Notes: a model not told the origin generated them from the sequence alone. Numbered from the stretch's first letter, positions 32,698-55,758 are shown. The stretch: 64,000 nt of DNA from an uncultured delta proteobacterium (GCA_963796685.1 CAWCMR010000010.1:96001-160000), one strand, 5' to 3'. Translations and numbers: made by a program.

Positions 32698-33047
32698 TTA
32701 TGCGGAGCGCTCGATTATGCGGAGTTCAACCGTCCCCAAGTCCCGAGGCTCGCGTGTCCTGCGGACTGGACCGTCGCTGACTCCGCATAATATCAAGCCG
32801 ACGTCACCCAGGAGCGGAGGTCAGCGGTGTCTTGCTGGGCATCAGCGATGCGATGAGACGGTCCGGCGGCCGGAAGCGCCCGGGGCGTAGTCGGAGGGGC
32901 ACGATGGACTCGATAGCCTCGATCTTCTCGGTCGGATCGGCCTGCAGGTAGATCTCGGTGGTCGACTGGCTCGTGTGTCCGAGCCAGAGCGACACCTTGC
33001 GGAGATCCCCGGTGGCCCGGAGCGTGTCCAACGCGCATGTGTGCCGC
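32698..33047 (-). mobile_element. RIT-B terminal fragment (terminal repeat plus 3' tail of its third recombinase)
   Basis: Matches 48497-48846; encodes TCALDTLRATGDLRKVSLWLGH..TTEIY. Confidence 0.88.
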
Positions 33048-33166
33048 TTATGCCGTGCTCGGCATAAGCGGCATTATGCCGAGTCCCCGGTTATGCCGAG
33101 TTGCCCGCCATTGCATGCAGGAATCACGGGGACTTCGGGTTCGCTTACGTGCGCGACTCGGCATAA

Positions 33167-34165
33167 TCAAAGGCTCTGTAGGAAGGCGAGGAGCTTGTCG
33201 TCGGGGTGGAAGCGAGCAGGTCGCGCTGCCGAGGGTGCTGTCTTGGCCAGCGCCCGCTCTTTGAGCTGGAGACTGGCAGCGAAGTAGATCTGCGTGGTCT
33301 CGACCGACTCGTGACCAAGCCAGAGCGCGATCACCGAGCTGTCGACACCGGCTTGAAGGAGATCCATTGCCGTCGAGTGGCGCAGCACGTGCGGAGACAC
33401 ATGCTTCTCCCTCAGCGAGGGGCAGCGGATCCGAGCGACCTGCACGTGTTTCGCGAGCAGGTACTCGACGCCGTCGCGACTGAGGAAACCGCCCCGCGCG
33501 TTGGGGAAGAGGGGCTCGGTCCCGGTGGCGGCACGTTCGCGCAGCCACGCCCGGAGGACCGAGACGGCCTCTTTGCGCAGGGGCGTGCAACGTTCCTTGC
33601 GGCCCTTGCCGAGGCAGTGAACGTACGCGCCGGGTCCGAGGACCACGTCCTGCACGTTGAGCGCGGCCAGCTCGGATACGCGCAGCCCGGTCTGAACGGC
33701 CACAAGGAGCATGGCGCGATCGCGCCGGCCGGACCATGTGGCCTTGTCGGGAGCTTCGAGGAGTGCGTCGATCTCGGGCCGGGACAGGAAGTGGACGAGC
33801 TCGCGATCGTATTTCTTGCCCTGCATGGCCAGAACCCTCTGGATGACGGCGCTGTAGTCGGGCGCCTGGAGGGCGGCGTACTGGAAGAAGGAGTGGATCG
33901 CCGCGAGCCTGGCGTTGCGGGTGCGCGGAGAGTTGCCGCGGTCCTTCTCGATGTGATCCAGGAACGCGCCAATCGTTGGTGTGTCGAGGTCGTCCAGTGC
34001 GAGCGCCGAGGGAGTCTTCTTCAGGTGCTGCTTCGTGAAGGCCAGCAGTAGGCGGAAGGTATCGCGATAGCTCTGCACTGTATGTGGACTTGCTTGACGC
34101 TGGCGCAGGAGATGGTCCACGAAGAAGGACTCAAGCAGCGCAGGGAATCCGTGGGAGGGCTTCAC
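33167..34165 (-). CDS. RIT-A third tyrosine recombinase
   Basis: TGLRVSEL, GKGRKER, SPHVLRHS, WLGHES..TTQIY. Confidence 0.93.
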   Translation of the reverse strand: MKPSHGFPALLESFFVDHLLRQRQASPHTVQSYRDTFRLLLAFTKQHLKKTPSALALDDLDTPTIGAFLDHIEKDRGNSPRTRNARLAAIHSFFQYAALQAPDYSAVIQRVLAMQGKKYDRELVHFLSRPEIDALLEAPDKATWSGRRDRAMLLVAVQTGLRVSELAALNVQDVVLGPGAYVHCLGKGRKERCTPLRKEAVSVLRAWLRERAATGTEPLFPNARGGFLSRDGVEYLLAKHVQVARIRCPSLREKHVSPHVLRHSTAMDLLQAGVDSSVIALWLGHESVETTQIYFAASLQLKERALAKTAPSAARPARFHPDDKLLAFLQSL

Positions 34166-35097
34166 GGCGACGTCCTATCTCGCTCCAGGAGCGACATGGC
34201 GAGGCTCATCAACTCGGGCACTGCGGTCAGGTACCAGTAGGTATCACTGACGTGGGTGTGCCCGAGGTAGGTCGACAGCTGCGGCAGGTGCCGCTCCACA
34301 TCGACTCCTGCCCGGTACCAGCGCAGCATGGTGTCCACGGCCCACCGATGCCGAAGGTCATGCAGACGCGGCCCATGACCGTGACGACCTTCAGGACCAC
34401 GAAGCCCAATCCGGCGAGACAGATGGACGAAGGTGTCTTCTGCAGTGTTCTTCACCACCCGGGCACCTGTCTCGCCGACGAAGAAGCTTCTCGTCCGTGG
34501 TGTTGGATGAACGCGATCACGGAAGCGTGCGTACCGGCAAAGTGCCAGTTTCGTCGATCGATGAATGGGCACCAGCCGGGTCTTCCCGAATTTGGTCCGG
34601 CGGATTGTCAGGATCCCGCCTTCGAGGTCAACATCCTCGCGGTCGAGAGCGATCGCCTCGCTGATCCTCAGACCGGCCACGGTGAGCAGGCCAAGCAGCG
34701 TGACGTAGGTCTGAGCACGAAGCCCCGTCTGCGATGGGAGCCGTGCCGCCGCATCCATCAGCCGCATGATCTCGTCCTCGCTGTATATGTAGGGGCGCTT
34801 GCGTTGATACCGAGCCCGGAGGAGCCCGAGGGCAGGGACCTCGGTGCGAGAATCGGTGGCGCGCCAATACTGTGCAAAGAGCCGGACCGCCGATAGCCGG
34901 CTGGCCCAATACACGGGCTGGGTCTTGGTCGGCCGCACGGCCCATTCGACGACCAGATCGTTGGTAATGAACGGAGCCTTCCGCTGCTCCATGAAGGACA
35001 CAAATTGCAGCAGTAACCGCCCCGAGCGGTCGAGCTTGTAGCCCAGACGGCGTCGCAGCGACAGGTACTCCTCGGCGCCCTCGCGGAGCGTATTCAT
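34162..35097 (-). CDS. RIT-A second tyrosine recombinase
   Basis: GLRISEA, TKFGKTRLVP, HDLRH, YLGH..SDTYWY. Confidence 0.93.
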   Translation of the reverse strand: MNTLREGAEEYLSLRRRLGYKLDRSGRLLLQFVSFMEQRKAPFITNDLVVEWAVRPTKTQPVYWASRLSAVRLFAQYWRATDSRTEVPALGLLRARYQRKRPYIYSEDEIMRLMDAAARLPSQTGLRAQTYVTLLGLLTVAGLRISEAIALDREDVDLEGGILTIRRTKFGKTRLVPIHRSTKLALCRYARFRDRVHPTPRTRSFFVGETGARVVKNTAEDTFVHLSRRIGLRGPEGRHGHGPRLHDLRHRWAVDTMLRWYRAGVDVERHLPQLSTYLGHTHVSDTYWYLTAVPELMSLAMSLLERDRTSP

Positions 35098-36325
35098 CGC
35101 CTGCCTCCTGGCCATGCAGGAGCGAGCGCACGTAGCGCATGGAAGTCTACCTTCGCGTAAATCGTCGTCGTATCGGCTCGACGGTGTCGCAGGACCTGCC
35201 CGATCTCGGTAAGGGTCGCTCCTCGGCGCAGCATCGAGCAGGCGAGCGCATGGCGGAGGATGTGCCCGCCTTTGCGTGGTGGGTCCAGTTCGGCGCGTTC
35301 CAGCGCTCGCTTCACGATCGTACAGACCGCGCCCGTGGTTGCGAAGCCACGCCGCGGCGCTCTCGCGCGGACGAAGACTCTCCGGCACGAGCATGCTGGG
35401 CGGCCATGGCGCAAGTACCGGGCGACGGCCTTGCCGACATCGGACGGCAACGGGAGGACGTCTTGCCGCCCACCCTTGCCGTGGACCCGCAACGTGCCTG
35501 CGGCCCAGTCGAAGTCTGCCAGATCCAGGCTCACGACTTCTCCACCGCGGAGGCCGAGTCGTGCCATCAGCATAATGACCGCGTGGTCGCGCAGGCCGGC
35601 TTCGGAGTTTCTTCGTCGACAGCGGCGCAACAGATGCTCGACGTCGCGCGCGGGGATCGATTTCGGCACCGTTGAGAAACGCCAGCAGGCGACCGCGGGA
35701 ACCGTGGCCGCGAGGTCTGCAGCCAGGGCTCTTTTCACGTGCACCCACCGCAGAAAACCGCGTAGGGCGGTAACCATCAGAGCGGCTCTCTTTGGATGGA
35801 CCACGTGAACATGCCGGACCAGAAATTCACCCGCATCCTGGGGCCCGAGCGCATTGAGGTGCACCTCCTGCCGTCGAACCGCTCCAGGAGGAACGAGCGG
35901 ACAATGGGCAGGTAGTTGATCTGAGTCAAGACGGACAAGCCGCGGTCCACCAACAGATACCGGCCGAACTCACTCACGATCCGCCCGATCGCAGTGTCAT
36001 CGACCTTGACGGGCGCTGGCGGCGCAAGACCGGCGGAACGGACCCGTTCAAGGACATCACGCAATGTCGCTGCGTCTCCACGCCGGGGTACGCAGGGATG
36101 GCGCCGGACAAAGCGGGCTACGGCCTGCTCGTCGACCTCCTCGACAGTCAGTCCTCGCCGTCCAAGCCAGTCTCCGAACTTCGCTGCCAGGCGCACCTTG
36201 CACGCCACGGTCGCAGGCGGATATCCCCTCTCAGTGAGCGTTTTTGCAAACGTGTCGAGGTGCGGACCCAAGGGGCCAGCGCGCAGTCGTTGCCATTTCA
36301 GAAAATCGTCGTGCATCCGGGGCAT
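35094..36325 (-). CDS. RIT-A first tyrosine recombinase, 1-bp frameshift near 35865
   Basis: Matches 49014-50246 except GGAGGTG versus GGAGGGTG. Confidence 0.88.
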
Positions 36326-37557
36326 GTGTCCTCCTTCGGCCCGGTGGCCAGAAGGAGACGACGACGCCCTGGTTATGCCGAGTCCGCAAGCCCACCTGCC
36401 GAGGAAATCGCCGTTGATCGCGCCAGATCGAGAGGCTCACTCGGCATAACCGGGGACTCGGCATAATGGCGCAAGACGTGGGCGCCTTTGAATGGAAAGG
36501 TCAGCCGCGCACGCGTGAAGGCCAGTCGGACAGCGGCTGTCACAGCCGAGGAGCTGAGCGGCTGGCCCACCGGCAGCTGGTGCCGGACGAACATGTGACG
36601 ATCGTCGGTGTGCGGCCGGCCGCGGCGTAGGTAGTCAACCAGTGCGCGCCCCACCGGTGCGGGCAGCGGCAGGACACTGGCCCGCCGCTCCTTTCCGCGA
36701 CCGACTCGCAAGGTGCCCGCCCGCCAATCCACGTCATCGAGCAACAGCGCAGCGACTTCGCCGGCCCGCAAGCCAAGCCCAGCCATGCACGAAACCATCG
36801 CGTAGTCCCGCCGTCCAGTCGCCGCGGTCAAGTCGAACGACGCAAGCAAGGCGGCGAGTTGCTCGTCGGACAGACCTCGGGGAAGATTCCCTCGGCGCCA
36901 ATGCGCCACCTTGGGAACAGCGGCTGCCAGTGTCCCTTCGCACAGGCCAGCGACTTGCGCAAATCGAAGGAAGCTACGCAACGCCGTTCGGACAAGCCCC
37001 GCCGCGCCCGGCGAGTACTTTCTGGTCTGCTCCGACACGAAGCCAATCAATTCCTTGGGCCCAAGCCGGCGCAGATCGATCTCGCCAGTCCCGTAGAGGG
37101 AAACCAGAAACCGACGAACGTGCAAGACGTTGCCCTGGCTGGTGGCATCGGTCACTCCGCACGTGTTTTGTCGGTAGGTCCTGAAGGACTCGAGCATACG
37201 GTCCACAGGCGTCTGCACTGGCCGCTGTGGGGGGGTGGCTACGCCCTGTGCGCGCAGCACGGCCAACACGTGGTCCAGTGCCGCCCGCATGTGACAACGC
37301 AACCCGTGTGGCACCCGACACTTGCATCGCGGGAGGTGCCCTTCCAGGAACGACGCTAGGGTAACTTCCCCCACCGCGTTCGGGCTGATCCTTTTGAGAT
37401 CTAACCAATGGGAGAAGTGGCCGGCTGCGCACAGGTACGATTGCCCGACTCTCGGTGTATGACCGCGCTTCTCCAAATGCGCAGCGACATCGTCAAGGAT
37501 CCCGCCCAGCGCTCCGCCGCGAAGGCGAGCCAGCACATAGTCATAGGTGAAAAACTT

Positions 37558-38968
37558 GGCTCTCCTGACATCTTCGTAAAGGGAGATCTCGTAGGTGCGA
37601 CGCACGTCGCCGACGGAGATGTGGGCGGCATGAGTTCCGGGTGAGGTGGAGACGAAGTGCGCACGGGCACCTGGGGTATCGTGTGGCTTGTCTGGAACCC
37701 ACAAGCCCAGGAGCCCATGCGCGCAACCACCCTATTCCGAAACCTACTCCAATTTCCACATACCCGTGTCCTGGCGGTCGAATTCGATCTGCTTGGCATA
37801 TTGGTGCACGTGGCGCCAACGACGACCGTTCCCTACTGTTCAGGCTGCGGATGTCGGGTCCATGACGTGTTCGATGCTCGGGCTCGGAACTGGCGGCATC
37901 TGGACGCGTGCGGGATGGAGGTTCTTCTGCGCTACACCCTGCGCAGGGTTGACTGTCCTCGGTGCGGCGTGGTCATCGAGATGGTCCCTTGGGCCGAGCC
38001 GAAGGTCGGCTTCACGCGTGACTTCGAGGACCATGTGGCCTATCTGGCCCAACAAGCAAGCCAGACGATGGTGGCCGAAACCATGCGCATCGCGTGGCGC
38101 ACCGTCGGCGCCATCATCCAGCGGGTGGTGCCGCGGCACCGAGATCCTAGCCTTCTCCTCGAGGACCTCGAACACATCGGCGTCGACGAGTTGTCGTACC
38201 GGCGGCACCATGAGTACGTCACCGTCGTTGTCGACCACGTCTCGCAGCGGGTCGTCTGGGCACACGAGGGCAAGAACGCTGCGACGCTCGGCTGCTTCTT
38301 CGACGCTCTCGGCCCGGAACGAACCAGCAAGCTCAAGACCGTCACCATCGACATGTCCGCGGCCTACATCGACGCGGTCACCTCGCGAGCGCCACAAGCG
38401 CAGATCGTCTTCGACCGCTTCCACGTTCAGAGACTCGTGCAGGAAGCACTCGACGAGCTCCGGCGTGCGGAGGTCCGACTCCTGGAGGACACCGACGAAC
38501 GCGGGCAACTGAAGAAGACCAAGTACCTTCTGCTCAAGAATCCGTGGAACCTATCCAGGGCCGAGTCTGAGAGGCTTTCGACCCTCCCGAAGACCAATGC
38601 CCGACTCTATCGCGGCTACCTGCTCAAGATCGCCATCTGCGACATCCTCGGTCGTCGCCAGGTCAACGTCGTCAAACAGAAGCTCGAAGAATGGATCAGT
38701 TGGGCCAGGCGATCCAGACTACCTTCCTTCAAGAAGGTCGCCGCGACCATCAAGAAATACCTGGACGGCATCGTGGCCATTGTCGCCACAGGGCTCAATA
38801 ACGGAAGAACCGAGGGCCTTAATGGCAAGATCAGGGTCATCACCCGCAGGGCCTATGGCTTCCACAACGCTCAAGCCCTCATTGGCTTCATCTTCCTCTG
38901 CTGCTCAGGCGTTGTCCTTCATCCCGTCTTCAAGGTGCCCGCGCTTCCATGAAGATGTCAGGAGAGCC
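37558..38968 (+). mobile_element. ISL3-family insertion sequence
   Basis: IR GGCTCTCCTGACATCTTC / GAAGATGTCAGGAGAGCC; flanks AAAAACTT and AAAAACTG (7/8 match, target duplication). Confidence 0.93.
37717..38952 (+). CDS. ISL3 transposase
   Basis: CxxC zinc finger, IGVDE, IDMS, DRFHV, EGLNGKIR..RRAYGF. Confidence 0.95.
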   Translation: MRATTLFRNLLQFPHTRVLAVEFDLLGILVHVAPTTTVPYCSGCGCRVHDVFDARARNWRHLDACGMEVLLRYTLRRVDCPRCGVVIEMVPWAEPKVGFTRDFEDHVAYLAQQASQTMVAETMRIAWRTVGAIIQRVVPRHRDPSLLLEDLEHIGVDELSYRRHHEYVTVVVDHVSQRVVWAHEGKNAATLGCFFDALGPERTSKLKTVTIDMSAAYIDAVTSRAPQAQIVFDRFHVQRLVQEALDELRRAEVRLLEDTDERGQLKKTKYLLLKNPWNLSRAESERLSTLPKTNARLYRGYLLKIAICDILGRRQVNVVKQKLEEWISWARRSRLPSFKKVAATIKKYLDGIVAIVATGLNNGRTEGLNGKIRVITRRAYGFHNAQALIGFIFLCCSGVVLHPVFKVPALP

Positions 38969-39107
38969 AAAAACTGCTCCAGCATGAGTGCTCCTTCCTG
39001 GCCAACAGGCCATCAAGAGCGCCCAAGACTATGCTGACAAACAGAACCCACCAATTCGAGCGACCCACCGGGAAATCCAGCACAGATCGCGTGCGGGTCA
39101 CGAGCAA

Positions 39108-39160
39108 CTCAGCATAATCCGAAACTCAGCATAGGACGGTCTATGCTGAGTTCAGCATAG
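39108..39160. mobile_element. RIT-C terminal repeat, 6-mer and 20-bp palindrome
   Basis: CTCAGCATAA-TCCGAAA-CTCAGCATAG / GACGGT / CTATGCTG-AGTT-CAGCATAG. Confidence 0.8.
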
Positions 39161-39757
39161 TCCATCCATCACGATGACGTGGAAGTGAACATTCAGATTC
39201 AGCGACGACCCGAACCGTTGCACGACGGTGAGGCTTCCGGTCTGCAGTCGGCCTCGAAGCTTGCGCATGCGTGCGCGGCGGCGGAGGTCGGAGTTGATGG
39301 CGCTGATGAATGCACCTAAAACCACGCTCGTGGCGTCGGGTGAATAGGCCATTTTGAAGCGCAAGGCATAGGGTAGCGAGAGCACATATTGCCGAGCAGG
39401 CACCTGGGGAAAAAGGTAATCTACGCAGAAAGCTGCCGTGTCTGCCATGCGGCGGCCAAGACAGCTCGGGCAAAATCCACGCCGCTTACACGCGAACGCC
39501 ACGACTCTGCTGTGCCCACAGTCTTTGCATCGGACGCGAAGAAGGCCGTGCACGAGGATGCCACAACGAAGGTAAGCCTCGATCTCGTCAAGCACGAAGG
39601 CGGGCAGCTCGCCGCCTCCTGATTCCAGATCTGCCAGGAACGTCGCCCAGTGTTCCTGTATCGTTCGATAAAGCAAAGTCGCTTCGAAGCTATGCCGCTC
39701 ATACGAGCCCGCGGGCGCGTGGGTGTGACAGCTTGCTGCTGGTTGCGTGGAAAGCAC
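39161..39757 (-). pseudogene. IS91-like transposase A, N-terminal fragment (Zn-binding domain and HUH motif)
   Basis: YLRCG...CKRRGFCPSC...RQYVLSLP...QRFGSSLNLNVHFHVIVMDG, then cut. Confidence 0.9.
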
Positions 39758-40230: not shown

Positions 40231-40380
40231 TTGGGAGGTGGGATGATCGCGGCCAGTCTGGCAATGAGGGCCAGCGGCGCAAGTTCGATCGACGAGGTGG
40301 CGCCAGACCAAGGCCGCTTGAGCTCCAGCCTCACGAGTTTGTCATCCAGGATCTTCAGCCGGGCGTCGTCGCGACCTCGA
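40231..40380 (-). pseudogene. Additional IS91-like transposase internal relic
   Basis: RLELKRPWSGATSSIELAPLALIARLAAIIPPP. Confidence 0.65.
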
Positions 40381-40483
40381 CCTGTGCAACGCACAAAGAG
40401 GCCCGGAGAATGAAGGCTTCTCCGGATCTCGATCCGAACCCTTCATTTCTCATCCGTCTCTGTGTTCTCTGTGTCCTCTGTGG

Positions 40484-43400
40484 TTAGAATCCGGAAATTG
40501 CTCGGGTTTCAAACCGTTCGGTGCTCCACAGCACCTTCCCGTCTTCCTCGCTCCCCGCCGCGCCTTCCTCGCCGGCATCCTCGTCGTCCTCGGACAGGCC
40601 GCTTTTGCGGATCAAATCGAGCAGATCGTCGCCGTCCAGGCGATCGGCGGCGTCGGCGCCATCAAGGATGCTGGCCGCGAGCTGGCGCTTTTCTTCGTGC
40701 AGGGACAGCACGGCCTCCTCGATGGTTCCGCGCGCGACCATGCGGATGACGGTGACGGGACGCTCCTGACCGATGCGGTGGGCGCGGTCGGTGGCCTGAT
40801 CTTCGACGGCGGGGTTCCACCAGGGATCCAGGTGGATGACATACGTGGCCGCGGTCAGGTTCAGGCCGGTGCCCCCCGCGCGCAACGAGAGCAGGAAGGC
40901 GTCGGCGGTCCCGGCCTGGAAGGCGCGCACGCGCTCTTCACGCTCCGCCGCTGGCGTGGAGCCGTCGAGGGTCAGGGTGCGCAGCCCGGCCTGGGTCAAG
41001 AGTGGCCGCGCCAGATCGAGGAAGCTGGTGAACTGGCTGAAGACCAGGGCGCGATGGCCCTCGTCGCGTAGCTCGCCGAGCAGCTCGACCAGCGCGGTCA
41101 GCTTGGCCGAGCCGGCGGTGGCTTCCTTGACCACCAGGCGCGGGTGGCAGCACAGAAGGCGCAGCCGGGTGAGCGCGGCCAGGATCTTGATCCGCTGTCG
41201 AGCGTCGTCTCCGATCGCCGCGGCCGCGCTCTTGGCCAAGCTCTCCAGAATCTCCACGCGCGCGGCCTCGTACAGACGGCGCTCGGCGGGGCCGAGCTCG
41301 ATGGTCTGGTTCATTTCGGTGCGCGAGGGCAGCTCGGGCGCGACCTCGGCCTTGGTCCGGCGCAAGAGAAATGGGCGCACCGCGCGCGCCAGGGCAGCCT
41401 GCCGTTTGCCGTCGTGGTGGCGCTCGATGGGCAAGGCAAAGCGCTCGCGGAAGCGCTCCCACGAGCCGAGCAGGCCGGGCGTGACCAGGCGGAAGATGGC
41501 CCACAGCTCGCCCAGGTGGTTCTCGATGGGCGTGCCGGTGAGGGCCACGCGAAAGTCCGCCTGCACGTCGCGGACCGCGCGGAACCTGTGCGTGAGCGCG
41601 TTCTTCACCGATTGCGCCTCGTCGATGATCAGGGTGGAAAACGCAATCGCACCCAGCGCCTCGGCATCGCGCACGGCAATCGCATAGCTGGTCATGAGGA
41701 GCACACCTTTGCCCAAATTCTCCAGCAGCGCCGCGCGGCCGGGGCCGCGGTAGATGCGCGGCGCAAGCCCGGGGGCGAACTTGGCGCATTCGGCGGCCCA
41801 GTTGGCGACCACCGAGGTGGGTGCGATGACCAGCGCCGGTCCCAGCTCGGCGCGATGCAAGAGCAGCGCCAGGGCCTGCACCGTCTTGCCGAGGCCCATG
41901 TCGTCGGCGAGGCACGCGCCCAGTCCCCAGCTCGGCCAGCCGCGCCAGCCACTCGAATCCGCCGATCTGATAGTGGCGCAGCGTCGCCTGCAGGCCATCG
42001 GGCAGCGCCGCCGTCTCCGTGCGCGCGGCCTCCAGCTTGCCGAGCACGGCGCGGAACGCGGGCACCATGTCGAGCTGGCTTCGATCCTCCACCAGCTCGG
42101 CCAGCACCGGCGCAGCCAGCAGGCCGAGCTCGATCGCACCCTGGTTGTCGAACACCACGTCGTCGAGCGCGGCCAGCCGCTCGCGCAGGTCGTCCTCCAG
42201 CGTGGCGAAGCGGTGTGCGTTCAGCCTCACGTAGCGCCGGCCCGCCCGCACCGCAGCCAGCAACTCGGACAGCGGTACACGCGAGCCGTCGAGCTCGATC
42301 CCGCCCTCGGCGCCGAACCAGTCGCGCCGCCGGTTCACCTGCACCTTCAGCGCCGCGGGCGAGACGTGGTCGACGCGGATCTCGCCCGCCGGCCACTCGA
42401 CCTCGGCCAGCTCGGGCACGCCGCGCAGCTTGCGCAGCACCTCGAGCGCGTCCCCGTCGTCGGGAAGATCCCAGCGCCAGGCGCCGTTGGCAGTGGCCTC
42501 GTCGAGGCCGAGCACCCGCACCAGGTGCGCCGCACGCTCGCGTTCGGCGCCGAGCGCGCGCAGGGCGTGCAGGTGACGCCCGTCGCGTGCGTGCAGCACC
42601 TCGGCCGTGCCTTCGCCGGGGTGAAAGATCGGACCACTCTCGATGGGCCGTACCGCCATGTCCAGCCGCACCCCGGCCTCGGGTAGGGGCTCCAAACGGC
42701 ACAGCGTCGTGGCGGGAGGCTCCACGCGCTCGCCGCGCACCGACTCGGGCAATTGTAGATTCGAGCGACCCCTGCAGCCGCGGCAGCCGGCCCACGAGCT
42801 CGGCCAGACCCTCGGCGGGCAGGTTGACCGGGAATCTGGCCATGGCGTTCAGCAGAGCGGTCGTTTCAGGCTCGAGCAGAGTCAGGAGACATCGGTTGTT
42901 CTTGGCGTCCAGCCACACCCCATGCCGACCGTCCGTGGCCGAGCTGAGCAGGGCGGCCGGTTCGATCTCGGCGTGCCCAAGCCCAAGCTTGAGGCGGAAG
43001 CCGCCTTCGACAGGTTCCACCTTGAGCGTGGGTCGCACCTTGCGCACCGAAATGGGCACTGTGCGCGCAGGATCCGCGAACACGCGCGACGAGCCGGCCA
43101 GTGCGGCGAGCGCTCGCCAGACCTGGCGCGGTGTCTGTTCGCGGGCCGGGTAATAGTACCCGCGGTTGTCGCGCGAATACATGAGCCCCTCGAATGCCTC
43201 CCGATCGGCGACATCGCGCAAGAGCTTCTCGTTGCGCTCGAGCACATCGAGCTTGACTCGCTGGCCGCGCCCCCAGGTTCCGCGCTTGCCCAGTCGCTGC
43301 AGGACGGGATGGATCGCCAAGCCGTGCTTGCTCGCCAACTCCCAGACCAGACGCTGGCCCTGGTCGACCGCGGCGGGCGCGGTCTTGCCCAATCCCGCAT

Positions 43401-44622: not shown

Positions 44623-44771
44623 GACGGGGTTCTTTATCGGGCAGAGAGGCGCGTCAGTTGCCTCCCTTCTCGGTTATCACATCTGGCCCGCGTTGGGCGA
44701 GCAGCAACTAACGCTGCGCGAGAATGGTGTTTGGGCGATTCGCAGCTCGCCTCGGTTTCTTCAAGCGACCG

Positions 44772-47845: not shown

Positions 47846-47918
47846 TCGCTGCCTGGTAGGTCTCGTCCGCGGCGCGTTCCGCTAGCAACAAATATCGCCG
47901 TGTTGCCGAGAGGTCCCG

Positions 47919-48470
47919 TTGGTGCTTTCCACGCAACCAGCAGCAAGCTGTCACACCCACGCGCCCGCGGGCGCGTATGAGCGGCATCGCCCCGAAACAA
48001 CTTTGCTTTATCGAACGAGAAAGGTCACGCGCTACGTAGGGCAGCTCACCGGAGAGGACAGGGATCAGCAGCTGACCCTTGAGCATCTGGCCAATTCTTC
48101 CGTGCAAGGGCTGGTCGCGACGGGGCCACGCCGAGGCTGTCGAGTGTTGCGCCTAGGAGGTACCCGCGAACATGCCCAGGCGGCCATCATAGGCAAGAGA
48201 TGTGCAGATGTGGCCGGTTTCAACGTGCACGCCAACGTGCGCGTGGGCGCCAACGACCGCGACGGCCTCGAACATTTGTGCCGATACCTTGCTCGACCAC
48301 CCATCGCGAATGACCGATTGCAAGAGCTGCCCGACGGCCGACTTGCCTTGCGCTTCAAGCAAGTTTGGCGGGATGGCACGACCCAAATCGTATTCACGCC
48401 GCACGAGCTGATAGAGAAGCTGATCCCATTGATTTCCCGCCCTCGCTGCCATCTGGTCCGATAACACGGC
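47919..48470 (+). pseudogene. IS91-like transposase B, N-terminal part with internal deletion
   Basis: Same N-terminus as copy A, then GFNVHA...LEHLCRYLARPP...WRDGT...PRCHLVR-stop-HG; Zn domain and HUH absent. Confidence 0.85.
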
Positions 48471-48602
48471 TTATGCGGTGCTCTGCATAACCCGTGTTAT
48501 GCGGAGCGCTCGATTATGCGGAGTTCAACCGTCCCCAAGTCCCGAGGCTCGCGTGTCCTGCGGACTGGACCGTCGCTGACTCCGCATAATATCAAGCCGA
48601 CG

Positions 48603-48846
48603 TCACCCAGGAGCGGAGGTCAGCGGTGTCTTGCTGGGCATCAGCGATGCGATGAGACGGTCCGGCGGCCGGAAGCGCCCGGGGCGTAGTCGGAGGGGCA
48701 CGATGGACTCGATAGCCTCGATCTTCTCGGTCGGATCGGCCTGCAGGTAGATCTCGGTGGTCGACTGGCTCGTGTGTCCGAGCCAGAGCGACACCTTGCG
48801 GAGATCCCCGGTGGCCCGGAGCGTGTCCAACGCGCATGTGTGACGC
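48603..48846 (-). pseudogene. RIT-B third recombinase, 3' part
   Basis: RHTCALDTLRATGDLRKVSLWLGH continues the SPHTLRH end at 52267. Confidence 0.85.
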
Positions 48847-49013
48847 TTATGCCGAGCACGGCATAAGCGGCATTATGCCGAGTCCCCGGTTATGCCGAGT
48901 GAGCCTCTCGATCTGGCGCGATCAACGGCGATTTCCTCGGCAGGTGGGCTTGCGGACTCGGCATAACCAGGGCGTCGTCGTCTCCTTCTGGCCACCGGGC
49001 CGAAGGAGGACAC

Positions 49014-50246
49014 ATGCCCCGGATGCACGACGATTTTCTGAAATGGCAACGACTGCGCGCTGGCCCCTTGGGTCCGCACCTCGACACGTTTGCAAAAACG
49101 CTCACTGAGAGGGGATATCCGCCTGCGACCGTGGCGTGCAAGGTGCGCCTGGCAGCGAAGTTCGGAGACTGGCTTGGACGGCGAGGACTGACTGTCGAGG
49201 AGGTCGACGAGCAGGCCGTAGCCCGCTTTGTCCGGCGCCATCCCTGCGTACCCCGGCGTGGAGACGCAGCGACATTGCGTGATGTCCTTGAACGGGTCCG
49301 TTCCGCCGGTCTTGCGCCGCCAGCGCCCGTCAAGGTCGATGACACTGCGATCGGGCGGATCGTGAGTGAGTTCGGCCGGTATCTGTTGGTGGACCGCGGC
49401 TTGTCCGTCTTGACTCAGATCAACTACCTGCCCATTGTCCGCTCGTTCCTCCTGGAGCGGTTCGACGGCAGGAGGGTGCACCTCAATGCGCTCGGGCCCC
49501 AGGATGCGGGTGAATTTCTGGTCCGGCATGTTCACGTGGTCCATCCAAAGAGAGCCGCTCTGATGGTTACCGCCCTACGCGGTTTTCTGCGGTGGGTGCA
49601 CGTGAAAAGAGCCCTGGCTGCAGACCTCGCGGCCACGGTTCCCGCGGTCGCCTGCTGGCGTTTCTCAACGGTGCCGAAATCGATCCCCGCGCGCGACGTC
49701 GAGCATCTGTTGCGCCGCTGTCGACGAAGAAACTCCGAAGCCGGCCTGCGCGACCACGCGGTCATTATGCTGATGGCACGACTCGGCCTCCGCGGTGGAG
49801 AAGTCGTGAGCCTGGATCTGGCAGACTTCGACTGGGCCGCAGGCACGTTGCGGGTCCACGGCAAGGGTGGGCGGCAAGACGTCCTCCCGTTGCCGTCCGA
49901 TGTCGGCAAGGCCGTCGCCCGGTACTTGCGCCATGGCCGCCCAGCATGCTCGTGCCGGAGAGTCTTCGTCCGCGCGAGAGCGCCGCGGCGTGGCTTCGCA
50001 ACCACGGGCGCGGTCTGTACGATCGTGAAGCGAGCGCTGGAACGCGCCGAACTGGACCCACCACGCAAAGGCGGGCACATCCTCCGCCATGCGCTCGCCT
50101 GCTCGATGCTGCGCCGAGGAGCGACCCTTACCGAGATCGGGCAGGTCCTGCGACACCGTCGAGCCGATACGACGACGATTTACGCGAAGGTAGACTTCCA
50201 TGCGCTACGTGCGCTCGCTCCTGCATGGCCAGGAGGCAGGCGATGA
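49014..50246 (+). CDS. RIT-A first tyrosine recombinase
   Basis: LGLRGGEV, HGKGG, HILRH, LRHR..TTTIYAK. Confidence 0.93.
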   Translation: MPRMHDDFLKWQRLRAGPLGPHLDTFAKTLTERGYPPATVACKVRLAAKFGDWLGRRGLTVEEVDEQAVARFVRRHPCVPRRGDAATLRDVLERVRSAGLAPPAPVKVDDTAIGRIVSEFGRYLLVDRGLSVLTQINYLPIVRSFLLERFDGRRVHLNALGPQDAGEFLVRHVHVVHPKRAALMVTALRGFLRWVHVKRALAADLAATVPAVACWRFSTVPKSIPARDVEHLLRRCRRRNSEAGLRDHAVIMLMARLGLRGGEVVSLDLADFDWAAGTLRVHGKGGRQDVLPLPSDVGKAVARYLRHGRPACSCRRVFVRARAPRRGFATTGAVCTIVKRALERAELDPPRKGGHILRHALACSMLRRGATLTEIGQVLRHRRADTTTIYAKVDFHALRALAPAWPGGRR

Positions 50247-51178
50247 ATACGCTCCGCGAGGGCGCCGAGGAGTACCTGTCGCTGCGACGCCGTCTGGGCT
50301 ACAAGCTCGACCGCTCGGGGCGGTTACTGCTGCAATTTGTGTCCTTCATGGAGCAGCGGAAGGCTCCGTTCATTACCAACGATCTGGTCGTCGAATGGGC
50401 CGTGCGGCCGACCAAGACCCAGCCCGTGTATTGGGCCAGCCGGCTATCGGCGGTCCGGCTCTTTGCACAGTATTGGCGCGCCACCGATTCTCGCACCGAG
50501 GTCCCTGCCCTCGGGCTCCTCCGGGCTCGGTATCAACGCAAGCGCCCCTACATATACAGCGAGGACGAGATCATGCGGCTGATGGATGCGGCGGCACGGC
50601 TCCCATCGCAGACGGGGCTTCGTGCTCAGACCTACGTCACGCTGCTTGGCCTGCTCACCGTGGCCGGTCTGAGGATCAGCGAGGCGATCGCTCTCGACCG
50701 CGAGGATGTTGACCTCGAAGGCGGGATCCTGACAATCCGCCGGACCAAATTCGGGAAGACCCGGCTGGTGCCCATTCATCGATCGACGAAACTGGCACTT
50801 TGCCGGTACGCACGCTTCCGTGATCGCGTTCATCCAACACCACGGACGAGAAGCTTCTTCGTCGGCGAGACAGGTGCCCGGGTGGTGAAGAACACTGCAG
50901 AAGACACCTTCGTCCATCTGTCTCGCCGGATTGGGCTTCGTGGTCCTGAAGGTCGTCACGGTCATGGGCCGCGTCTGCATGACCTTCGGCATCGGTGGGC
51001 CGTGGACACCATGCTGCGCTGGTACCGGGCAGGAGTCGATGTGGAGCGGCACCTGCCGCAGCTGTCGACCTACCTCGGGCACACCCACGTCAGTGATACC
51101 TACTGGTACCTGACCGCAGTGCCCGAGTTGATGAGCCTCGCCATGTCGCTCCTGGAGCGAGATAGGACGTCGCCGTGA
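50243..51178 (+). CDS. RIT-A second tyrosine recombinase
   Basis: ATGA overlap; HDLRH, YLGH, TYWY. Confidence 0.93.
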   Translation: MNTLREGAEEYLSLRRRLGYKLDRSGRLLLQFVSFMEQRKAPFITNDLVVEWAVRPTKTQPVYWASRLSAVRLFAQYWRATDSRTEVPALGLLRARYQRKRPYIYSEDEIMRLMDAAARLPSQTGLRAQTYVTLLGLLTVAGLRISEAIALDREDVDLEGGILTIRRTKFGKTRLVPIHRSTKLALCRYARFRDRVHPTPRTRSFFVGETGARVVKNTAEDTFVHLSRRIGLRGPEGRHGHGPRLHDLRHRWAVDTMLRWYRAGVDVERHLPQLSTYLGHTHVSDTYWYLTAVPELMSLAMSLLERDRTSP

Positions 51179-52173
51179 AGCCCTCCCACGGATTCCCTGC
51201 GCTGCTTGAGTCCTTCTTCGTGGACCATCTCCTGCGCCAGCGTCAAGCAAGTCCACATACAGTGCAGAGCTATCGCGATACCTTCCGCCTACTGCTGGCC
51301 TTCACGAAGCAGCACCTGAAGAAGACTCCCTCGGCGCTCGCACTGGACGACCTCGACACACCAACGATTGGCGCGTTCCTGGATCACATCGAGAAGGACC
51401 GCGGCAACTCTCCGCGCACCCGCAACGCCAGGCTCGCGGCGATCCACTCCTTCTTCCAGTACGCCGCCCTCCAGGCGCCCGACTACAGCGCCGTCATCCA
51501 GAGGGTTCTGGCCATGCAGGGCAAGAAATACGATCGCGAGCTCGTCCACTTCCTGTCCCGGCCCGAGATCGACGCACTCCTCGAAGCTCCCGACAAGGCC
51601 ACATGGTCCGGCCGGCGCGATCGCGCCATGCTCCTTGTGGCCGTTCAGACCGGGCTGCGCGTATCCGAGCTGGCCGCGCTCAACGTGCAGGACGTGGTCC
51701 TCGGACCCGGCGCGTACGTTCACTGCCTCGGCAAGGGCCGCAAGGAACGTTGCACGCCCCTGCGCAAAGAGGCCGTCTCGGTCCTCCGGGCGTGGCTGCG
51801 CGAACGTGCCGCCACCGGGACCGAGCCCCTCTTCCCCAACGCGCGGGGCGGTTTCCTCAGTCGCGACGGCGTCGAGTACCTGCTCGCGAAACACGTGCAG
51901 GTCGCTCGGATCCGCTGCCCCTCGCTGAGGGCGAAGCATGTGTCTCCGCACGTGCTGCGCCACTCGACGGCAATGGATCTCCTTCAAGCCGGTGTCGACA
52001 GCTCGGTGATCGCGCTCTGGCTTGGTCACGAGTCGGTCGAGACCACGCAGATCTACTTCGCTGCCAGTCTCCAGCTCAAAGAGCGAGCGCTGGCCAAGAC
52101 AGCACCCTCGGCAGCGCGACCTGCTCGCTTCCACCCCGACGACAAGCTCCTCGCCTTCCTACAGAGCCTTTGA
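51175..52173 (+). CDS. RIT-A third tyrosine recombinase
   Basis: GTGA overlap; catalytic R..K..HxLRH..LGH..Y residues present. Confidence 0.93.
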   Translation: MKPSHGFPALLESFFVDHLLRQRQASPHTVQSYRDTFRLLLAFTKQHLKKTPSALALDDLDTPTIGAFLDHIEKDRGNSPRTRNARLAAIHSFFQYAALQAPDYSAVIQRVLAMQGKKYDRELVHFLSRPEIDALLEAPDKATWSGRRDRAMLLVAVQTGLRVSELAALNVQDVVLGPGAYVHCLGKGRKERCTPLRKEAVSVLRAWLRERAATGTEPLFPNARGGFLSRDGVEYLLAKHVQVARIRCPSLRAKHVSPHVLRHSTAMDLLQAGVDSSVIALWLGHESVETTQIYFAASLQLKERALAKTAPSAARPARFHPDDKLLAFLQSL

Positions 52174-52266
52174 TTATGCCGAGTCGCGCACGTAAGCGAA
52201 CCCGAAGTCCCCGTGATTCCTGCATGCAATGGCGGGCAACTCGGCATAACCGGGGACTCGGCATAA

Positions 52267-53033
52267 TGCCGCAGCGTGTGTGGCGAAACACTTCTGCCGG
52301 CCAGCGATGGGCACGCGACCGCTGCGGCGGCAACGTGCTTGCGAAGCACATATTCGAAGCCCGAGCGCGACATAGGGTGAGCGGTGGCCGCGAGGAACAA
52401 CTCGGGACAGGAGGCAGTGCCTCGGATGGCGAGCCAGGCGCGGATAGCGTCGCCTACTTCCTTCCACAGCAGGAGCGCGCGCTCCTTGCGACCCTTGCCG
52501 AGCACGCAAATCTCGACGTAGCGGCCGTCGAAGCGCACGTTGTCGAGGCGCAGCCCGACGAGCTCGGAGACACGCAATCCGCCAGTGAGTGCGAGGTAGA
52601 GCATGGCGCGGTCGCGAATGCCGAGACGCGACGCTGGGTCCGGCGCGTCGAGGACGGCACGCGATTCCGTGGCCGACAGATGTTTCACCAGGCGGGTGTC
52701 GGTGCGCTGCAACGGGATCGCAAGCACGCGCTGGATCTGGTCGAGCGCCGCGGGAACGCGATACTCGATGAAGTGCATGAAGGATCGGACGGCGGCCAGC
52801 CGCGTGTTGCGTGAGCGGGCGCCGTTGCCGCGCTCGCGTTGGATGTGGTCGAGGAATGCCAGCACGAGAGACGCGTCGATGTGCTCGATCTGGATCTCGG
52901 AGGGCGTTACGCCCAGGCGCCTGCTTGCGAACGCGAACAAGAGTTGGAAGGCATATGCATAGGCGACGCGCGTATTTTCACAGGTGATCCGCTCACGAAG
53001 AAACGCGGTGATGTGTGGAGCGATCGGGGTCAT
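52267..53033 (-). pseudogene. RIT-B third recombinase, 5' part, cut at SPHTLRH
   Basis: MTPIAPHITAFL...GLRVSEL...GKGRKER...SPHTLRH, then RIT-A IR. Confidence 0.88.
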
Positions 53034-53941
53034 CGGCGTCCTCCTTCGAAGCGACGCTGGCAGGCGTCGGCAACCTGCGACATGAGCATTGGCGTGGCCT
53101 GAAAGTACCAGTAGGTATCAGCGATACAGCTGTGGCCGAGGTACGTCGAAACCGCGAGCATGTGCCTGGCGATTCGATCGCGCCGATCAGGAGAGCTTTC
53201 GAGAGCGCGCACGGCGAATGTGTGCCGGATGTCGTGCACGCGCGGTTTGCGTCCTCCCGACCGCGCCGGCAGGCCAGCTTTCCGGAGCACCGTGAGCCAT
53301 GCCTTGCGAAAGCCGCCGTAGGAAAGACGCGTGCCTTTGATGCTCACGAACACGTGGTCGTCGCTGCCGGCCACTGCACGTCGGCGGTCCAGATACTGCT
53401 TGATCCCGCTCTGCGCCGAGGGATGGAGCGGGACCAGACGCGTCTTGCCGAACTTGGTCTTGCGGATGACCAGGCCGTCCGATGTCACGTCAGCCATGCG
53501 CAAGGCGAGTGCTTCTGAGATGCGTAGCCCTGTCGCAAAGAGCAGCGCCAGCATCGTGCTCACGGTGAGCGGCCGGAGCGACTTTGCTGGTCCGAGCCGC
53601 GCTGCGACCTCGACGAGCCGGCGCGTTTCGTCCGGGGTGTAGATGTACGGAACCGGCCGATGCCGCTTTCCCGAGAAGTGGCGATCCGGGGGAATCTCGT
53701 GGCGGGGGTCTTCGGCGTGGAGATAGCGGGCGAGTTGAACGACCCGCTGGAAGAGCCGGCACCGCTGGCCAGGTGTGGCCGCGTGCGATGCCCACGCGAG
53801 GGCGGTTTCGGCGCGAACGTGGTCCTCGCCGCGGGCGGCGGCGAACTCGGCGAATCGACGCAGGTGCCGCTCGTATTTTCTGAGCGCGAAACCGCTTGCT
53901 CGCCGCGTGGCCAGCCAGGTATCGATGAGTGTCATCAGCAT
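53030..53941 (-). CDS. RIT-B second tyrosine recombinase
   Basis: TGLRISEAL, TKFGKTRLVP, HDIRH, YLGH..DTYWY. Confidence 0.92.
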   Translation of the reverse strand: MLMTLIDTWLATRRASGFALRKYERHLRRFAEFAAARGEDHVRAETALAWASHAATPGQRCRLFQRVVQLARYLHAEDPRHEIPPDRHFSGKRHRPVPYIYTPDETRRLVEVAARLGPAKSLRPLTVSTMLALLFATGLRISEALALRMADVTSDGLVIRKTKFGKTRLVPLHPSAQSGIKQYLDRRRAVAGSDDHVFVSIKGTRLSYGGFRKAWLTVLRKAGLPARSGGRKPRVHDIRHTFAVRALESSPDRRDRIARHMLAVSTYLGHSCIADTYWYFQATPMLMSQVADACQRRFEGGRR

Positions 53942-55176
53942 GACGCCCCTCCGATCCACGGCTGCGCCACTGAACGCAGAAGCTCCACATCGACCTTGGC
54001 GTAGTGGGAGGTCGTCTCGACAGATCGGTGCCGGAGCACTATTCCGATCGAAGGAAGGGAGATGCCTTCACGTAGCATCGCCGTCGCGGCAGAGTGACGC
54101 AGTAGATGAGCGCCCCGGGTCGGGGTGGATGCGCCCGCACGGGCGATGGCGCGCTTGACGATGCAGGAAACGCAGGAACTTTCCGCCAACGGCCGCCACG
54201 GTGTACGGGATCTCAGAAAAACCCGGTCACATCCGACAACAGCGCGCCGGGCGCGCAAGTAGGCGAGGATCGCATCTCCGACTTCCTGGGGGAGCGGCAG
54301 CCGCACCTCGCGGCGCCCCTTGCCCGCGACCTGCACGCGAGCGTTTGCCCAGTCGATGTCGCTTAGGCGCATCCGGACGATGTCGCCGCCCCGTAGTCCG
54401 AGCCGGGCGAGGAGCAGCAGGATGGCGCGGTCGCGCGCACCGTCCGGTCGACTCGAATCGCACGCGTCGATGATCCGCTGCACGACTTCGGCGGACACGT
54501 ACCTCGGCAGCGAATCCAAACTCCAACTCGCCACTGGCAGGACGGCCGCATCAAGACCAGGTCGGCACCGTCCCTCCAGTGCGAGGTAGCGCAGAAATGC
54601 GCGTGCGACGGTCGTAACTTGCTTCGCCGTTGCGGCGCCATGTCCACCGACTACCTCACGCACCGCCGCTCGAAGCACGCCCGCCCCGTAGCGAGCGGGG
54701 TCGTCACCGAGGTGTTCCAGGAGTGCGATGGCAACGCGCCTGTAGTGGCGCAAGGTCGTATCTGTGGCGCCACGCTGGCGCCGCATCCACTCGCAAAACC
54801 CCGTCACCAGATCCGGTGTTGCTATCGCCTGCTGCCCCGGAACCGCAACGACCCCCACTGTGCGCAAGTACTGCACGAAGACCCACGTGCGCGGACGGGC
54901 GACTGCATGAAAACCGGCGCGGTTTCCGGGGCAACGGCATCGAGACAGGTGCGCCAAGAATGCGCTCAAAGTTTCCTCGTCCAAATCCCCGATTCGCACG
55001 TCCTCAGCAGTGGCCCAAATGCCGAGATGCACGGCGTAGGTGATGCACCATGTGCCAATCCGCTTGCAGTAGCCGATCTCGCGTAGAGCGGTGGCGAAGC
55101 CGTCGAGATACGACCCAACGGGACTCGATCGAGCTCGCGCGAGCCAGTACGCCGATCGCAGAAAGTACTCCAACAT
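53935..55176 (-). CDS. RIT-B first tyrosine recombinase
   Basis: GAGGAGG RBS, MLEYFLRS; LGLRGGDI, AHLLRHS, LRHRSVETTSHYAK. Confidence 0.92.
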   Translation of the reverse strand: MLEYFLRSAYWLARARSSPVGSYLDGFATALREIGYCKRIGTWCITYAVHLGIWATAEDVRIGDLDEETLSAFLAHLSRCRCPGNRAGFHAVARPRTWVFVQYLRTVGVVAVPGQQAIATPDLVTGFCEWMRRQRGATDTTLRHYRRVAIALLEHLGDDPARYGAGVLRAAVREVVGGHGAATAKQVTTVARAFLRYLALEGRCRPGLDAAVLPVASWSLDSLPRYVSAEVVQRIIDACDSSRPDGARDRAILLLLARLGLRGGDIVRMRLSDIDWANARVQVAGKGRREVRLPLPQEVGDAILAYLRARRAVVGCDRVFLRSRTPWRPLAESSCVSCIVKRAIARAGASTPTRGAHLLRHSAATAMLREGISLPSIGIVLRHRSVETTSHYAKVDVELLRSVAQPWIGGASC

Positions 55177-55341
55177 TGTTTCCTCCTCGGTGGACGGGTC
55201 GGGATCATCCCGGCCCTGAGAGGAGGACACCTCCGTTATGCTGAGCCGTCTAGGGCGCGCCACGCGGTCAACTACCCGCCGACACGCAGGGATCGTGACG
55301 GGCACATCGCGGCACTCCGCATAATCGAGCGCTCCGCATAA

Positions 55342-55758
55342 CATGGCATCCTCGGCCCCGCGGCCAAGGATCGCGCCAAGGTGGTGCCGACCCCGCCCAC
55401 GCCACCCGCGCCAGATGCGGCGGGTGCCGAGGCGGCCGGCGCGGACAAGGCGGGCGAGGGTGAATCTCGCGAGATCGACCTCAGCAAGAGACCAAGAGTC
55501 AGCCGACTGCCTTGGGCCATTCTTCTCAAACGCGTGTTCCTGACAGACGCGCTGACATGCCCGAAGTGCCAAGGGCGGATGAAGATCCTGGCCGCGATCA
55601 CAAAGCCAGAAGCAATACGCAAGATTCTAGAACACCTAGGAATCCCCAGCGAAGCCCCACGCCGCACCTCCGCGCGTCCACCGCCGCAATCTGAGCTTTT
55701 GGGCACGTCCGACCTCGCCGAGGTCGACTACGCGGACCCGCCCAGCCCCGAGTGGTGA
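55342..55758 (+). pseudogene. IS91-like transposase B, C-terminal fragment
   Basis: HGILGPAAKDRAKVVP...CPKCQGRMKILA; close paralogue of 32281-32697. Confidence 0.85.

Follow-up and report, generated by a model that had tools for sequence, protein, structure and literature searches.

We analysed a stretch of 64,000 nucleotides (the window) from an uncultured delta proteobacterium with a genome of 7.3 Mb (GCA_963796685.1, CAWCMR010000010.1:96001-160000). The G+C content of the window is approximately 65%, and its region from 32 to 56 kb is a pile of nested mobile elements, which includes three recombinase-in-trio (RIT) elements of approximately 3.4 kb each, here called RIT-A, RIT-B, and RIT-C. 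The nesting is three levels deep, with RIT-B or RIT-C in IS91-like transposase genes and RIT-A in RIT-B or RIT-C. The three elements are very probably trio-family tyrosine-recombinase transposons that insert site-specifically into a short DNA target, and this target coincides with the codons of conserved enzyme motifs in other mobile DNA.

RIT-A comprises three overlapping tyrosine recombinase genes (ATGA overlap at 50243 and GTGA overlap at 51175), which fill the unit; no accessory TnpC, Srap/GinD, or Tfp gene is present. Its terminal inverted repeats (IRs) are perfect over 34 bp and consist of a 6-bp outer segment followed by two 10-bp boxes 7 bp apart (box-N7-box). In Pfam, copy 1 matches PF00589 with its second and third genes; its ritA is broken by a 1-nt deletion in a G run and, thus frameshifted, gives only a weak SAM-domain match. 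The intact ritA of copy 2 matches Xer-type recombinases in NCBIfam, below the curated cut-offs, and no RIT-specific model was found in that database. RIT-B and RIT-C show the same trio layout and the same build as RIT-A, with one box position different. A trio gene on plasmid pHG1 of Cupriavidus necator H16 matches RitB of RIT-A at 49% identity over 98% of the protein, and there are six places with matches in that record (tblastn); the ends of the pHG1 trio (L112) were not located by our end-finding script. By every feature tested, the elements are RITs.

Every insertion reads, in order, target, core (6 bp), box-N7-box, the three rit genes, a second box-N7-box, the core in reverse complement, palindrome (20 bp), core again, and target. 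The 6-bp target core is duplicated in insertions of all three elements and spells target codons: G CGN CA (L-R-H) for RIT-A, CAY GGN (H-G) for RIT-B, and GAT GGN (D-G) for RIT-C. The spacers vary among copies and always spell target codons. The palindrome side is fixed relative to the target and the body occurs in either orientation; the arrangements of spacer, palindrome, and body in two RIT-B insertions and in two kinds of RIT-A insertion can be converted into each other by circular permutation. Genome-wide, there are 19 box-N7-box ends, all of which belong to RIT-A (10), RIT-B (6), or RIT-C (3), and 10 palindromes, each beside a RIT end. Solo palindromes were sought across the genome and none was found; the idea that the palindrome is a reusable footprint is therefore unsupported here.

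The targets of RIT-A are H-x-[L/I]-R-H codons in tyrosine recombinase genes, among them genes of RIT-B and RIT-C. Five near-identical copies are present in the genome, with seven variable positions among them, two of which lie in the outer 6-bp spacer and two of which are G-run indels in ritA, possibly assembly errors. All five lie at [L/I]-R-H codons of Rit genes, in three different target genes with unrelated flanks. An earlier note on this DNA, made from the sequence alone, had claimed that RIT-A cuts two tyrosine recombinase genes at H-x-L-R-H, and the junctions GAHVL/RH and SPHTL/RHTCALD lie where it placed them. Copy 2 splits ritC of RIT-B, with ...SPHTL on one side (52273, minus strand) and RHTCALD on the other, beyond the palindrome (48847-48866) and the core (48841-48846); the target site in the window is SPHTLRHTCALD. 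An unrearranged insertion of RIT-A into RIT-C lies on contig C12 of the same genome, where ritA of RIT-C is split as GAHVL/RHTAATRM and both flanks are present. Copy 1 shows the N side of such a junction at 36473 on the minus strand (flank ...GAHVL, with R-H supplied by the element end). Its flanks are chimeric, with ritA of RIT-C on one side and the C-terminal part of RIT-B ritC on the other, so that it is a recombinant between two RIT-A insertions. The third target is VHDI/RH in ritB of RIT-B on contig C25 (in the window, ritB at 53030-53941 contains VHDIRH); there the element is joined to the first target's C-terminal part, with 950 bp missing, an arrangement that would match the product expected of a recombinase-mediated deletion between a RIT-A end and a second target. 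Two configurations of the first target occur, distinct in the spacer and in the orientation of both body and palindrome.

The target of RIT-B is Y-H-G close to the C-terminal end of IS91-family transposases, in agreement with the earlier placement at the H-G of HLVR(Y)HG (ends at 32692, 48491, and 55347; cores at 48465-48470 and 55342-55347). It spans 48491-55347, with RIT-A nested inside, has a further end at 32692, and adjoins ...HLVR(stop)HG (48450-48470, plus strand) and HG/ILGPAAKDR (55342 onward, plus strand). The IS91 flanks at 32187-32691 and 55348-55752, which the earlier note had read as inward-reading N-terminal parts, are instead C-terminal remainders on the other strand, and therefore 47872-48470, RIT-B, and 55348-55752 form one simple plus-strand insertion. 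In the genome, RIT-B lies at Y-H-G of three diverged IS91-like genes, the flanking DNA being approximately 84-91% identical and RIT-B itself >99.9% identical. The Y codon before H-G (48462-48464 and its equivalents on contigs C11 and C25) is TAA in the occupied copies and TAC in intact relatives and in one occupied metagenome copy (L122). The changed base adjoins the 6-bp core, which may mean an exchanged segment of 7 bp or common ancestry of the copies. Relatives of RIT-B (72-82% RitB identity) lie at ...YHG/ of IS91 genes in seven further metagenome contigs, and the IS91 proteins that they hit are strongly diverged (HLVRYHG, INLFIYHG, INLVVYHG, and LLLYHG). The Y2_Tnp profile (PF04986) stops at position 175-177 of 183 in all three flanks of such relatives tested; the flank of L121 was located by peptide search. 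Two related contigs have the insertion in a weakly bAvd-like gene.

RIT-C targets D-G just after HUH in IS91-family transposases. The earlier note had put it at the D-G after NVHFHVIVMDG, which is correct (codons 39161-39166), and the same position is occupied in a second IS91-like gene, a remnant on contig C12 of the type found on contig C9. C12 carries a full RIT-C, and the target remnant there reads SPHFHVLHLDG / AYAPGRDGG; the N-terminal part in the window shows 43% protein identity to intact C9-type copies. RIT-C is broken by RIT-A in both copies. Three further observations concern this element and its targets. Contig C9 contains, between 8 and 130 kb, 12 or 13 copies of an open 509-codon IS91-like transposase gene on one strand within approximately 125 kb, a density unusual for one IS91-family element. 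On C12, a 2077-bp repeat with at least 12 near-identical copies in the genome lies inside the inner 6-bp spacer of RIT-C, between palindrome and IR (26452-28528; L016 2452-4528). On contig C11 (around 10940; L017), 2 nt are deleted from an unoccupied HUH-DG site, three to seven bases downstream of the RIT-C core, by which the gene is frameshifted; this could be an excision scar or a chance mutation, the two being indistinguishable.

Empty sites were sought by aligning contigs of four public runs to positions 47900-55900, at the level of contigs rather than raw reads. One contig in each of the runs X2, X3, and X8, from three studies, joins 48840 to 52267 with 3426 bp absent; the joint was not seen in run X1. 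This length is the sum of RIT-A without one of its cores (3400 bp), the palindrome (20 bp), and a single core (6 bp), and the empty site retains one 6-bp core. Elsewhere, RIT-B therefore exists with its ritC unbroken, which bears out the predicted borders. The X2 contig also has a RIT-B/IS91 junction identical to that of the window, and a loose end in X2 runs from ...CACGGC directly into downstream IS91 sequence (ATCCTCGGTCCCGC). In related genomes, open IS91-like genes of approximately 520-530 codons contain HLVRYHGILGPAAKDR and HFHVIAMDGVYAEQ uninterrupted, and intact relatives read GTC CGA TAC CAC GGC ATC CTC at one site and ATG GAC GGC GTA TAC at the other. The insertions are site-specific, their ends are symmetric, and there is a precise empty site. 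Soil, peat, sediment, and permafrost metagenomes (runs X1-X20, 19 studies) contain parts of this 8-kb stretch, with word shares of 0.20-0.29; in X2, X3, and X8, the aligned part is mainly RIT-B, at approximately 97-98% identity. Low word shares and uncovered parts of the stretch were not taken as evidence of habitat or absence.

The survey of other genomes began from an end-pattern search, which listed 29 sites outside the window's genome; 15 loci were examined. RIT-A-like ends occur in three genomes of the same family (G034, G042, and G043) with six readable flanks, and a seventh end, in genome G004, has just 4 nt of flank and is unreadable. The earlier note had raised the possibility that other copies lie at unrelated sequences; all five RIT-A copies of the genome are at [L/I]-R-H, and five of the six readable flanks in related genomes are at a recombinase R-H motif. 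Of the ends with other box types, four are at G-R-K-N-W-L-F of IS66 transposases, one adjoins the C-terminal part of an rve-type transposase gene, and four are unreadable.

For a wider sample, we scanned with an alignment of three RitB proteins and took the best 80 of at least 580 confirmed stretches, which come from many phyla. Both ends were located in 49 of the 80 loci, mostly 3.37-3.42 kb apart (five outliers, 2.97-4.29 kb), and the 17-bp box period is constant at the ends of all 49. At least one end lies at an R-H motif of a recombinase gene in 42 of the 49, which extends the motif preference to related elements. The count of ends, 97 in total, leaves aside the 31 loci without both ends and one end with a flank of <45 nt. 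An N-type motif, H.[LIFMVPT]R[HR], ending 0-7 nt into the element, was found at 40 of these 97 ends and at 41 of 4050 random positions in the same flanks; the motif ends 0-3 nt into the element in 39 of the 40 cases and 7 nt into it in the remaining one. A C-type motif, RH.FA, was found at 36/97 ends and 328/4050 random flank positions, and in most cases it starts approximately 24-28 nt outside the element, that is, just past core and palindrome. PF00589 was detected by Pfam in 29 of 33 open reading frames (ORFs) for the N-terminal part, the tally excluding ORFs of <60 aa (7/40). The profile stops at position 134 of 172 in the member examined in detail and at 134-136 of 172 in split target genes; the C-terminal parts continue through the LLGH...Y motif. 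Among the recombinase targets are RitA-, RitB-, and RitC-like genes, others that are Xer-like, and the gene of a P4-type integrase with an arm-binding domain; the targets are mutually only approximately 16-30% identical.

The other seven of the 49 loci are in RadC at H-N-H-P-S-G (two), in an IS4-like DDE transposase at L-D-G-T-E-Y-F (two copies), in IS66 at I-S-N-N (one), or unclear (two). Single-end rescue in the remaining 31 loci yielded seven more R-H targets, two in IstB (one by Pfam and one by eye), and two unclear ones. Exact 10-mer pairing in 64 more distant metagenome loci left seven with ends, five of which were read by eye: IS21 istA (L146/L147), rve (L168/L169), and one that could not be resolved (L195). 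RITs on plasmids of cultured S. meliloti and R. leguminosarum lie in IS66 genes at ...TA/K(L/M)N..DP. Overall, IS66 transposases, RadC, DDE_Tnp_1, rve, and IstB were confirmed by Pfam as targets other than recombinases. Target classes group together on a RitB tree (8 label changes, the mean after shuffling being 10.9 and 0/200 shuffles reaching so low a number); R-H is widespread on it, the remaining targets forming nested offshoots. Two loci deserve separate mention. The two copies in the IS4-like gene (L047/L048, one metagenome-assembled genome) are sister to a copy at H-D-L-R-H in another such genome (L074), with almost the same boxes and with different spacers and targets, which looks like a recent target switch. 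At L007, a 213-bp C-terminal part of an rve-type transposase gene occurs twice (5279-5491 and 9750-9962), at the RIT end and in an intact gene 4.3 kb away, a duplication not expected from simple insertion.

These observations suggest a mechanism. The element would excise as a circle, the junction of which would form a single extended palindrome and hold both core sites (box-spacer-box) in full, inverted relative to each other, and a crossover with the target core inside the 6-bp spacer of either site would integrate it, the polarity being set by matching of spacer and core. With either core site usable, both body orientations would arise while the palindrome side stays fixed. The spacers would be coupling sequences acquired from earlier targets; inherited in this way, they could differ between copies yet spell target codons. 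The target gene would be split before the catalytic tyrosine or within the catalytic core, so that a RIT in dispensable, horizontally travelling DNA would inactivate the enzyme of that element, and targets made of invariant codons would remain available across diverged hosts, as for homing endonucleases.

The features of the region are compiled in Table 1. An insertion sequence (IS) of the ISL3 family, approximately 1.41 kb long (DDE_Tnp_ISL3, 431-aa ORF), sits in ritA of RIT-C at about 37557-38968 and is seemingly active at present, since more than 15 near-identical copies are spread over the genome. Between the RIT clusters (40484-47312), all on the minus strand, are genes for a SNF2-family helicase (551-aa ORF) and an MMPL-family transporter, together with an ORF of 976 aa that has no Pfam match. 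A megablast search of 32000-56000 against plasmids gave no close relative, the matches being confined to short fragments of 78-84% identity. DNA matches in Streptomyces and other plasmids are restricted, within the region, to the helicase piece. Elsewhere in the window (2954-3223 and 10280-11363), and unrelated to the RITs, lie a tandem array of 54-bp period and two direct repeats of approximately 530-560 bp that are 97-100% identical.

Table 1. Mobile elements and their parts between 32 and 56 kb of the window
Feature	Position	Strand	Remarks
IS91-like transposase, C-terminal remainder (IFGPAAKDRAKVV...)	32187..32691	-	Reads away from RIT-B end; 82% protein identity to the piece at 55342+
RIT-B left end fragment, 356 bp: 6-bp spacer, box-N7-box IR, C-terminal part of ritC (RHTCALD...)	32692..33047	-	99% identical to 48491-48846; remainder of this RIT-B copy lost
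20-bp palindrome of RIT-A copy 1, two inverted boxes	33048..33067	.	
RIT-A copy 1, 3405 bp, chimeric flanks	33068..36472	-	From self-comparison
RIT-C left part: ritA cut at GAHVL/RH by RIT-A; own IR 39108-39134, spacer 39135-39140	36473..39140	-	
20-bp palindrome of RIT-C	39141..39160	.	
IS91-like transposase, N-terminal part (Zn_Tnp_IS91 and start of Y2_Tnp), ends NVHFHVIVMDG; D-G codons 39161-39166	39161..39757	-	
IS91-like transposase gene with internal deletion, to ...HLVR(stop)HG; core CACGGC 48465-48470	47872..48470	+	Y2_Tnp profile positions 73-177 of 183
20-bp palindrome of RIT-B	48471..48490	.	
RIT-B left end: IR, C-terminal part of ritC, 6-bp core 48841-48846	48491..48846	-	
20-bp palindrome of RIT-A copy 2	48847..48866	.	
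RIT-A copy 2, 3406 bp, intact: ritA 49014-50246, ritB 50243-51178, ritC 51175-52173	48867..52272	+	
Rest of RIT-B: N-terminal part of ritC 52273-53033 (ends ...SPHTL), ritB 53030-53941, ritA 53935-55176, right IR, core CATGGC 55342-55347	52273..55347	-	
C-terminal remainder of the IS91-like gene begun at 47872 (ILGPAAKDRAKVV...CPKCQGRMKILA...)	55348..55752	+	Intact relatives read HLVRYHGILGPAAKDR

Several observations weigh against site-specific insertion into motif codons, or against the mechanism proposed for it. The arms of the RIT-A target barely resemble the RIT-A boxes, and base-frequency tables of occupied and unoccupied R-H sites revealed no clear DNA discriminator. Twelve intact C9-type IS91 copies with the same 6-bp core as RIT-C are unoccupied in the genome. 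No circular junction was observed in the contigs. One locus (L060) is without a palindrome, and four (L022, L025, L028, and L038) have two N-terminal parts, or two C-terminal parts with two palindromes, which a single simple integration cannot yield. The mechanism does not account for the C-to-A change beside the RIT-B core, and the TAA codon common to both occupied IS91 copies could mark common descent, RIT-B having then been homogenised by exchange. In the survey, both ends were not located in 31 of the 80 loci, no ends were found by exact 10-mer pairing in 57 of the 64 distant ones, and 21 of the 97 ends have neither motif. The sixth readable RIT-A-like end (L004) lies in a Sel1-repeat gene with the same core; L069 is in AT-rich, apparently non-coding DNA, L015 is beside a peptidase gene, L087 adjoins DUF72 with doubtful ends, and L010, L012, L014, L061, L085, L119, L126, and L131 are unreadable.

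The strongest alternative, to which we give not quite an even chance, concerns what the elements gain rather than where they insert. The recombinases would recognise a DNA word as a pseudo-att site, the benefit would be a harmless landing and a ride on plasmids, integrative and conjugative elements, and ISs, and inactivation of the target would be a side effect. The RIT-B target does resemble its own box plus spacer (TCCG-ATA + CAYGGC), the spacers spell target codons, L047/L048 and L074 have nearly the same boxes with different spacers and targets, and the off-target in the Sel1 gene has the same core. Moreover, relatives of RitB occur in 246 plasmid records, 153 of which are conjugative. Nothing separates this account from competitor disabling; a hint against it is that all targets lie in the most conserved motif of their family, and another, a hint only, is that RIT-C, broken in both copies, leaves its 12 matching targets unused. 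A safe site and the disabling of a competitor would both be consequences, as read from targets split before the catalytic tyrosine, and an adaptive reading of either kind, competitor disabling or safe hitch-hiking, would predict the same sequences.

Near-random insertion followed by survival only in dispensable mobile-element genes is very unlikely. Nearly all targets are indeed dispensable to the host, and a few copies lie elsewhere (L004, L069, and L015). However, survivorship predicts scattered positions, whereas those observed are codon-fixed: the N-type motif ends at 0-3 nt in 39/40 cases against a background of 41/4050, and the Pfam profiles stop at one position in each family, PF00589 at 134-136 and PF04986 at 175-177.

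It is still less likely that the repeated junctions descend from a few ancestral insertions duplicated with their flanks, which would make a target preference unnecessary. The RIT-B::RIT-A composite on C11 shares its inner junction with the window copy, the IS91 flanks of C25 and C11 are 99.5% identical, and the shared TAA codon and the shared RIT-B/IS91 junction of the X2 contig point the same way. Against these stand the three RIT-A target genes with unrelated flanks, the two RIT-C targets, the window N-terminal part having just 43% protein identity to the intact C9-type relatives of the second target, and the 42 of 49 loci of other phyla at the same motif in recombinases approximately 16-30% identical. 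For RIT-B, a single duplicated insertion, which the earlier note had considered possible, did not emerge: the flanks are 84-91% identical and the element >99.9%, and its relatives on the seven further contigs lie in diverged IS91 genes. Finally, the notion that the flanking recombinase halves are recombination products between recombinase genes, or parts of a larger conserved element, rather than targets has next to no probability: it draws on the doubled N- or C-terminal parts at L022, L025, L028, and L038 and on the chimeric copy 1, and is contradicted by the uninterrupted ritC of RIT-B in contigs of three runs, exactly 3426 bp shorter. Also against it are the flanking genes of many subfamilies, including the P4-type integrase with its arm-binding domain, and the same architecture in IS66, IS91, RadC, and IstB genes.

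Site-specific insertion into motif codons is the preferred explanation, and the idea in the earlier note that each RIT is a hyperparasite with a target defined by a protein motif is largely supported by the sequences, with the caveat that recombinases read DNA, so the motif defines the target through its codons only; the Sel1 gene is an exception. A more general picture is plausible but, taken as a whole, somewhat more likely wrong than right. It holds that all RITs are hyperparasitic homing transposons whose lineages are aimed at motif codons: tyrosine recombinase R-H, IS91 HUH and Y-H-G, three IS66 sites, IS21 IstA/IstB, the D-G-T of DDE transposases, and the JAMM motif of RadC. The address would be held partly in the 6-bp spacers of the two inverted core sites and rewritten at each excision, and one off-target event could therefore re-aim a lineage without any change of protein, of which L047/L074 may be an example. 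In the same picture, element boxes and target arms may be served by different members of the recombinase trio.

Known since 2009, RITs are spread over many phyla and hundreds of plasmids; their mobility, mechanism, and target choice are called untested in the literature examined. The locus provides a testable rule for where a RIT inserts, what form its ends take, and what form the empty site has, together with a mechanistic model; the property is new and general, and it belongs to a known but poorly understood element family. It would account for many "broken integrase" or "broken transposase" genes beside recombinase trios in annotated genomes, and it enlarges the small group of selfish elements homing into invariant codons by one based on tyrosine recombinases. 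Recombinases that use short coding motifs, with an address partly in exchangeable spacers, could interest genome engineers.

RITs were described in Cupriavidus metallidurans CH34, on C. necator pHG1, and in Bordetella petrii. The published accounts mention trios by which radC was inactivated in two species, and others that disrupt a Tn6049-like transposase gene or the tnpA of an IS66 element; trio genes truncated in "complex combinations", and an IR with an overlapping palindrome and no convincing binding sites, are also reported (Janssen 2010, PMC2864759; Van Houdt 2012, PMC3414803). RitA is reported to have two core-binding domains and RitC an extra C-terminal helix (Smyshlyaev 2021, PMC8138268), and a table in a 2023 review lists RIT target specificity and movement as not tested (PMC10214605). 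The elements described here resemble the RITs in these accounts in having three overlapping recombinase genes in one order, a length of approximately 3.4 kb, IRs of approximately 30-34 bp with a palindrome, and identical copies per genome. They differ in that the insertions in those accounts are anecdotal, whereas the present analysis fixes the insertion point to the codon and defines the architecture of the ends, with R-H as the commonest target. The literature examined, coverage of which is incomplete, contains no statement of fixed motif codons, of a usual R-H target, or of this end structure, and our claim of novelty extends as far as that coverage.

The closest analogues in behaviour are Tn554, strand-biased circularizing integrative elements (SE), and GInts on the one hand and homing endonucleases or inteins on the other. 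Tn554, SE, and GInts likewise have several tyrosine recombinases and insert site-specifically. They carry a 6-bp donor sequence to the new site; they differ in gene sets (TnpC, Tfp, Srap, and GinD), in their cargo, and in the use of a single chromosomal att site (PMC10214605). RITs, unlike these, have no cargo, and they combine symmetric box-N7-box ends with a 20-bp palindrome and target the motif codons of mobile genes. A 6-bp coupling like that of Tn554/SE is suggested for RITs by comparison among copies. Homing endonuclease genes, inteins, and mobile introns also target the most conserved codons of enzymes, where the site persists across hosts and is hard to mutate away; their route of movement is double-strand-break repair or retrohoming, and splicing restores the host gene. 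RITs are selfish elements aimed at invariant codons as well, but use tyrosine recombination and leave the gene split. Tn7/TnsD-like systems and the IS110/IS1111 elements in REP or attC sites use safe, conserved, and often mobile targets, usually outside coding motifs or downstream of conserved genes. RITs are like them in the choice of a safe target and differ in recombinase chemistry and in having the site inside catalytic codons.

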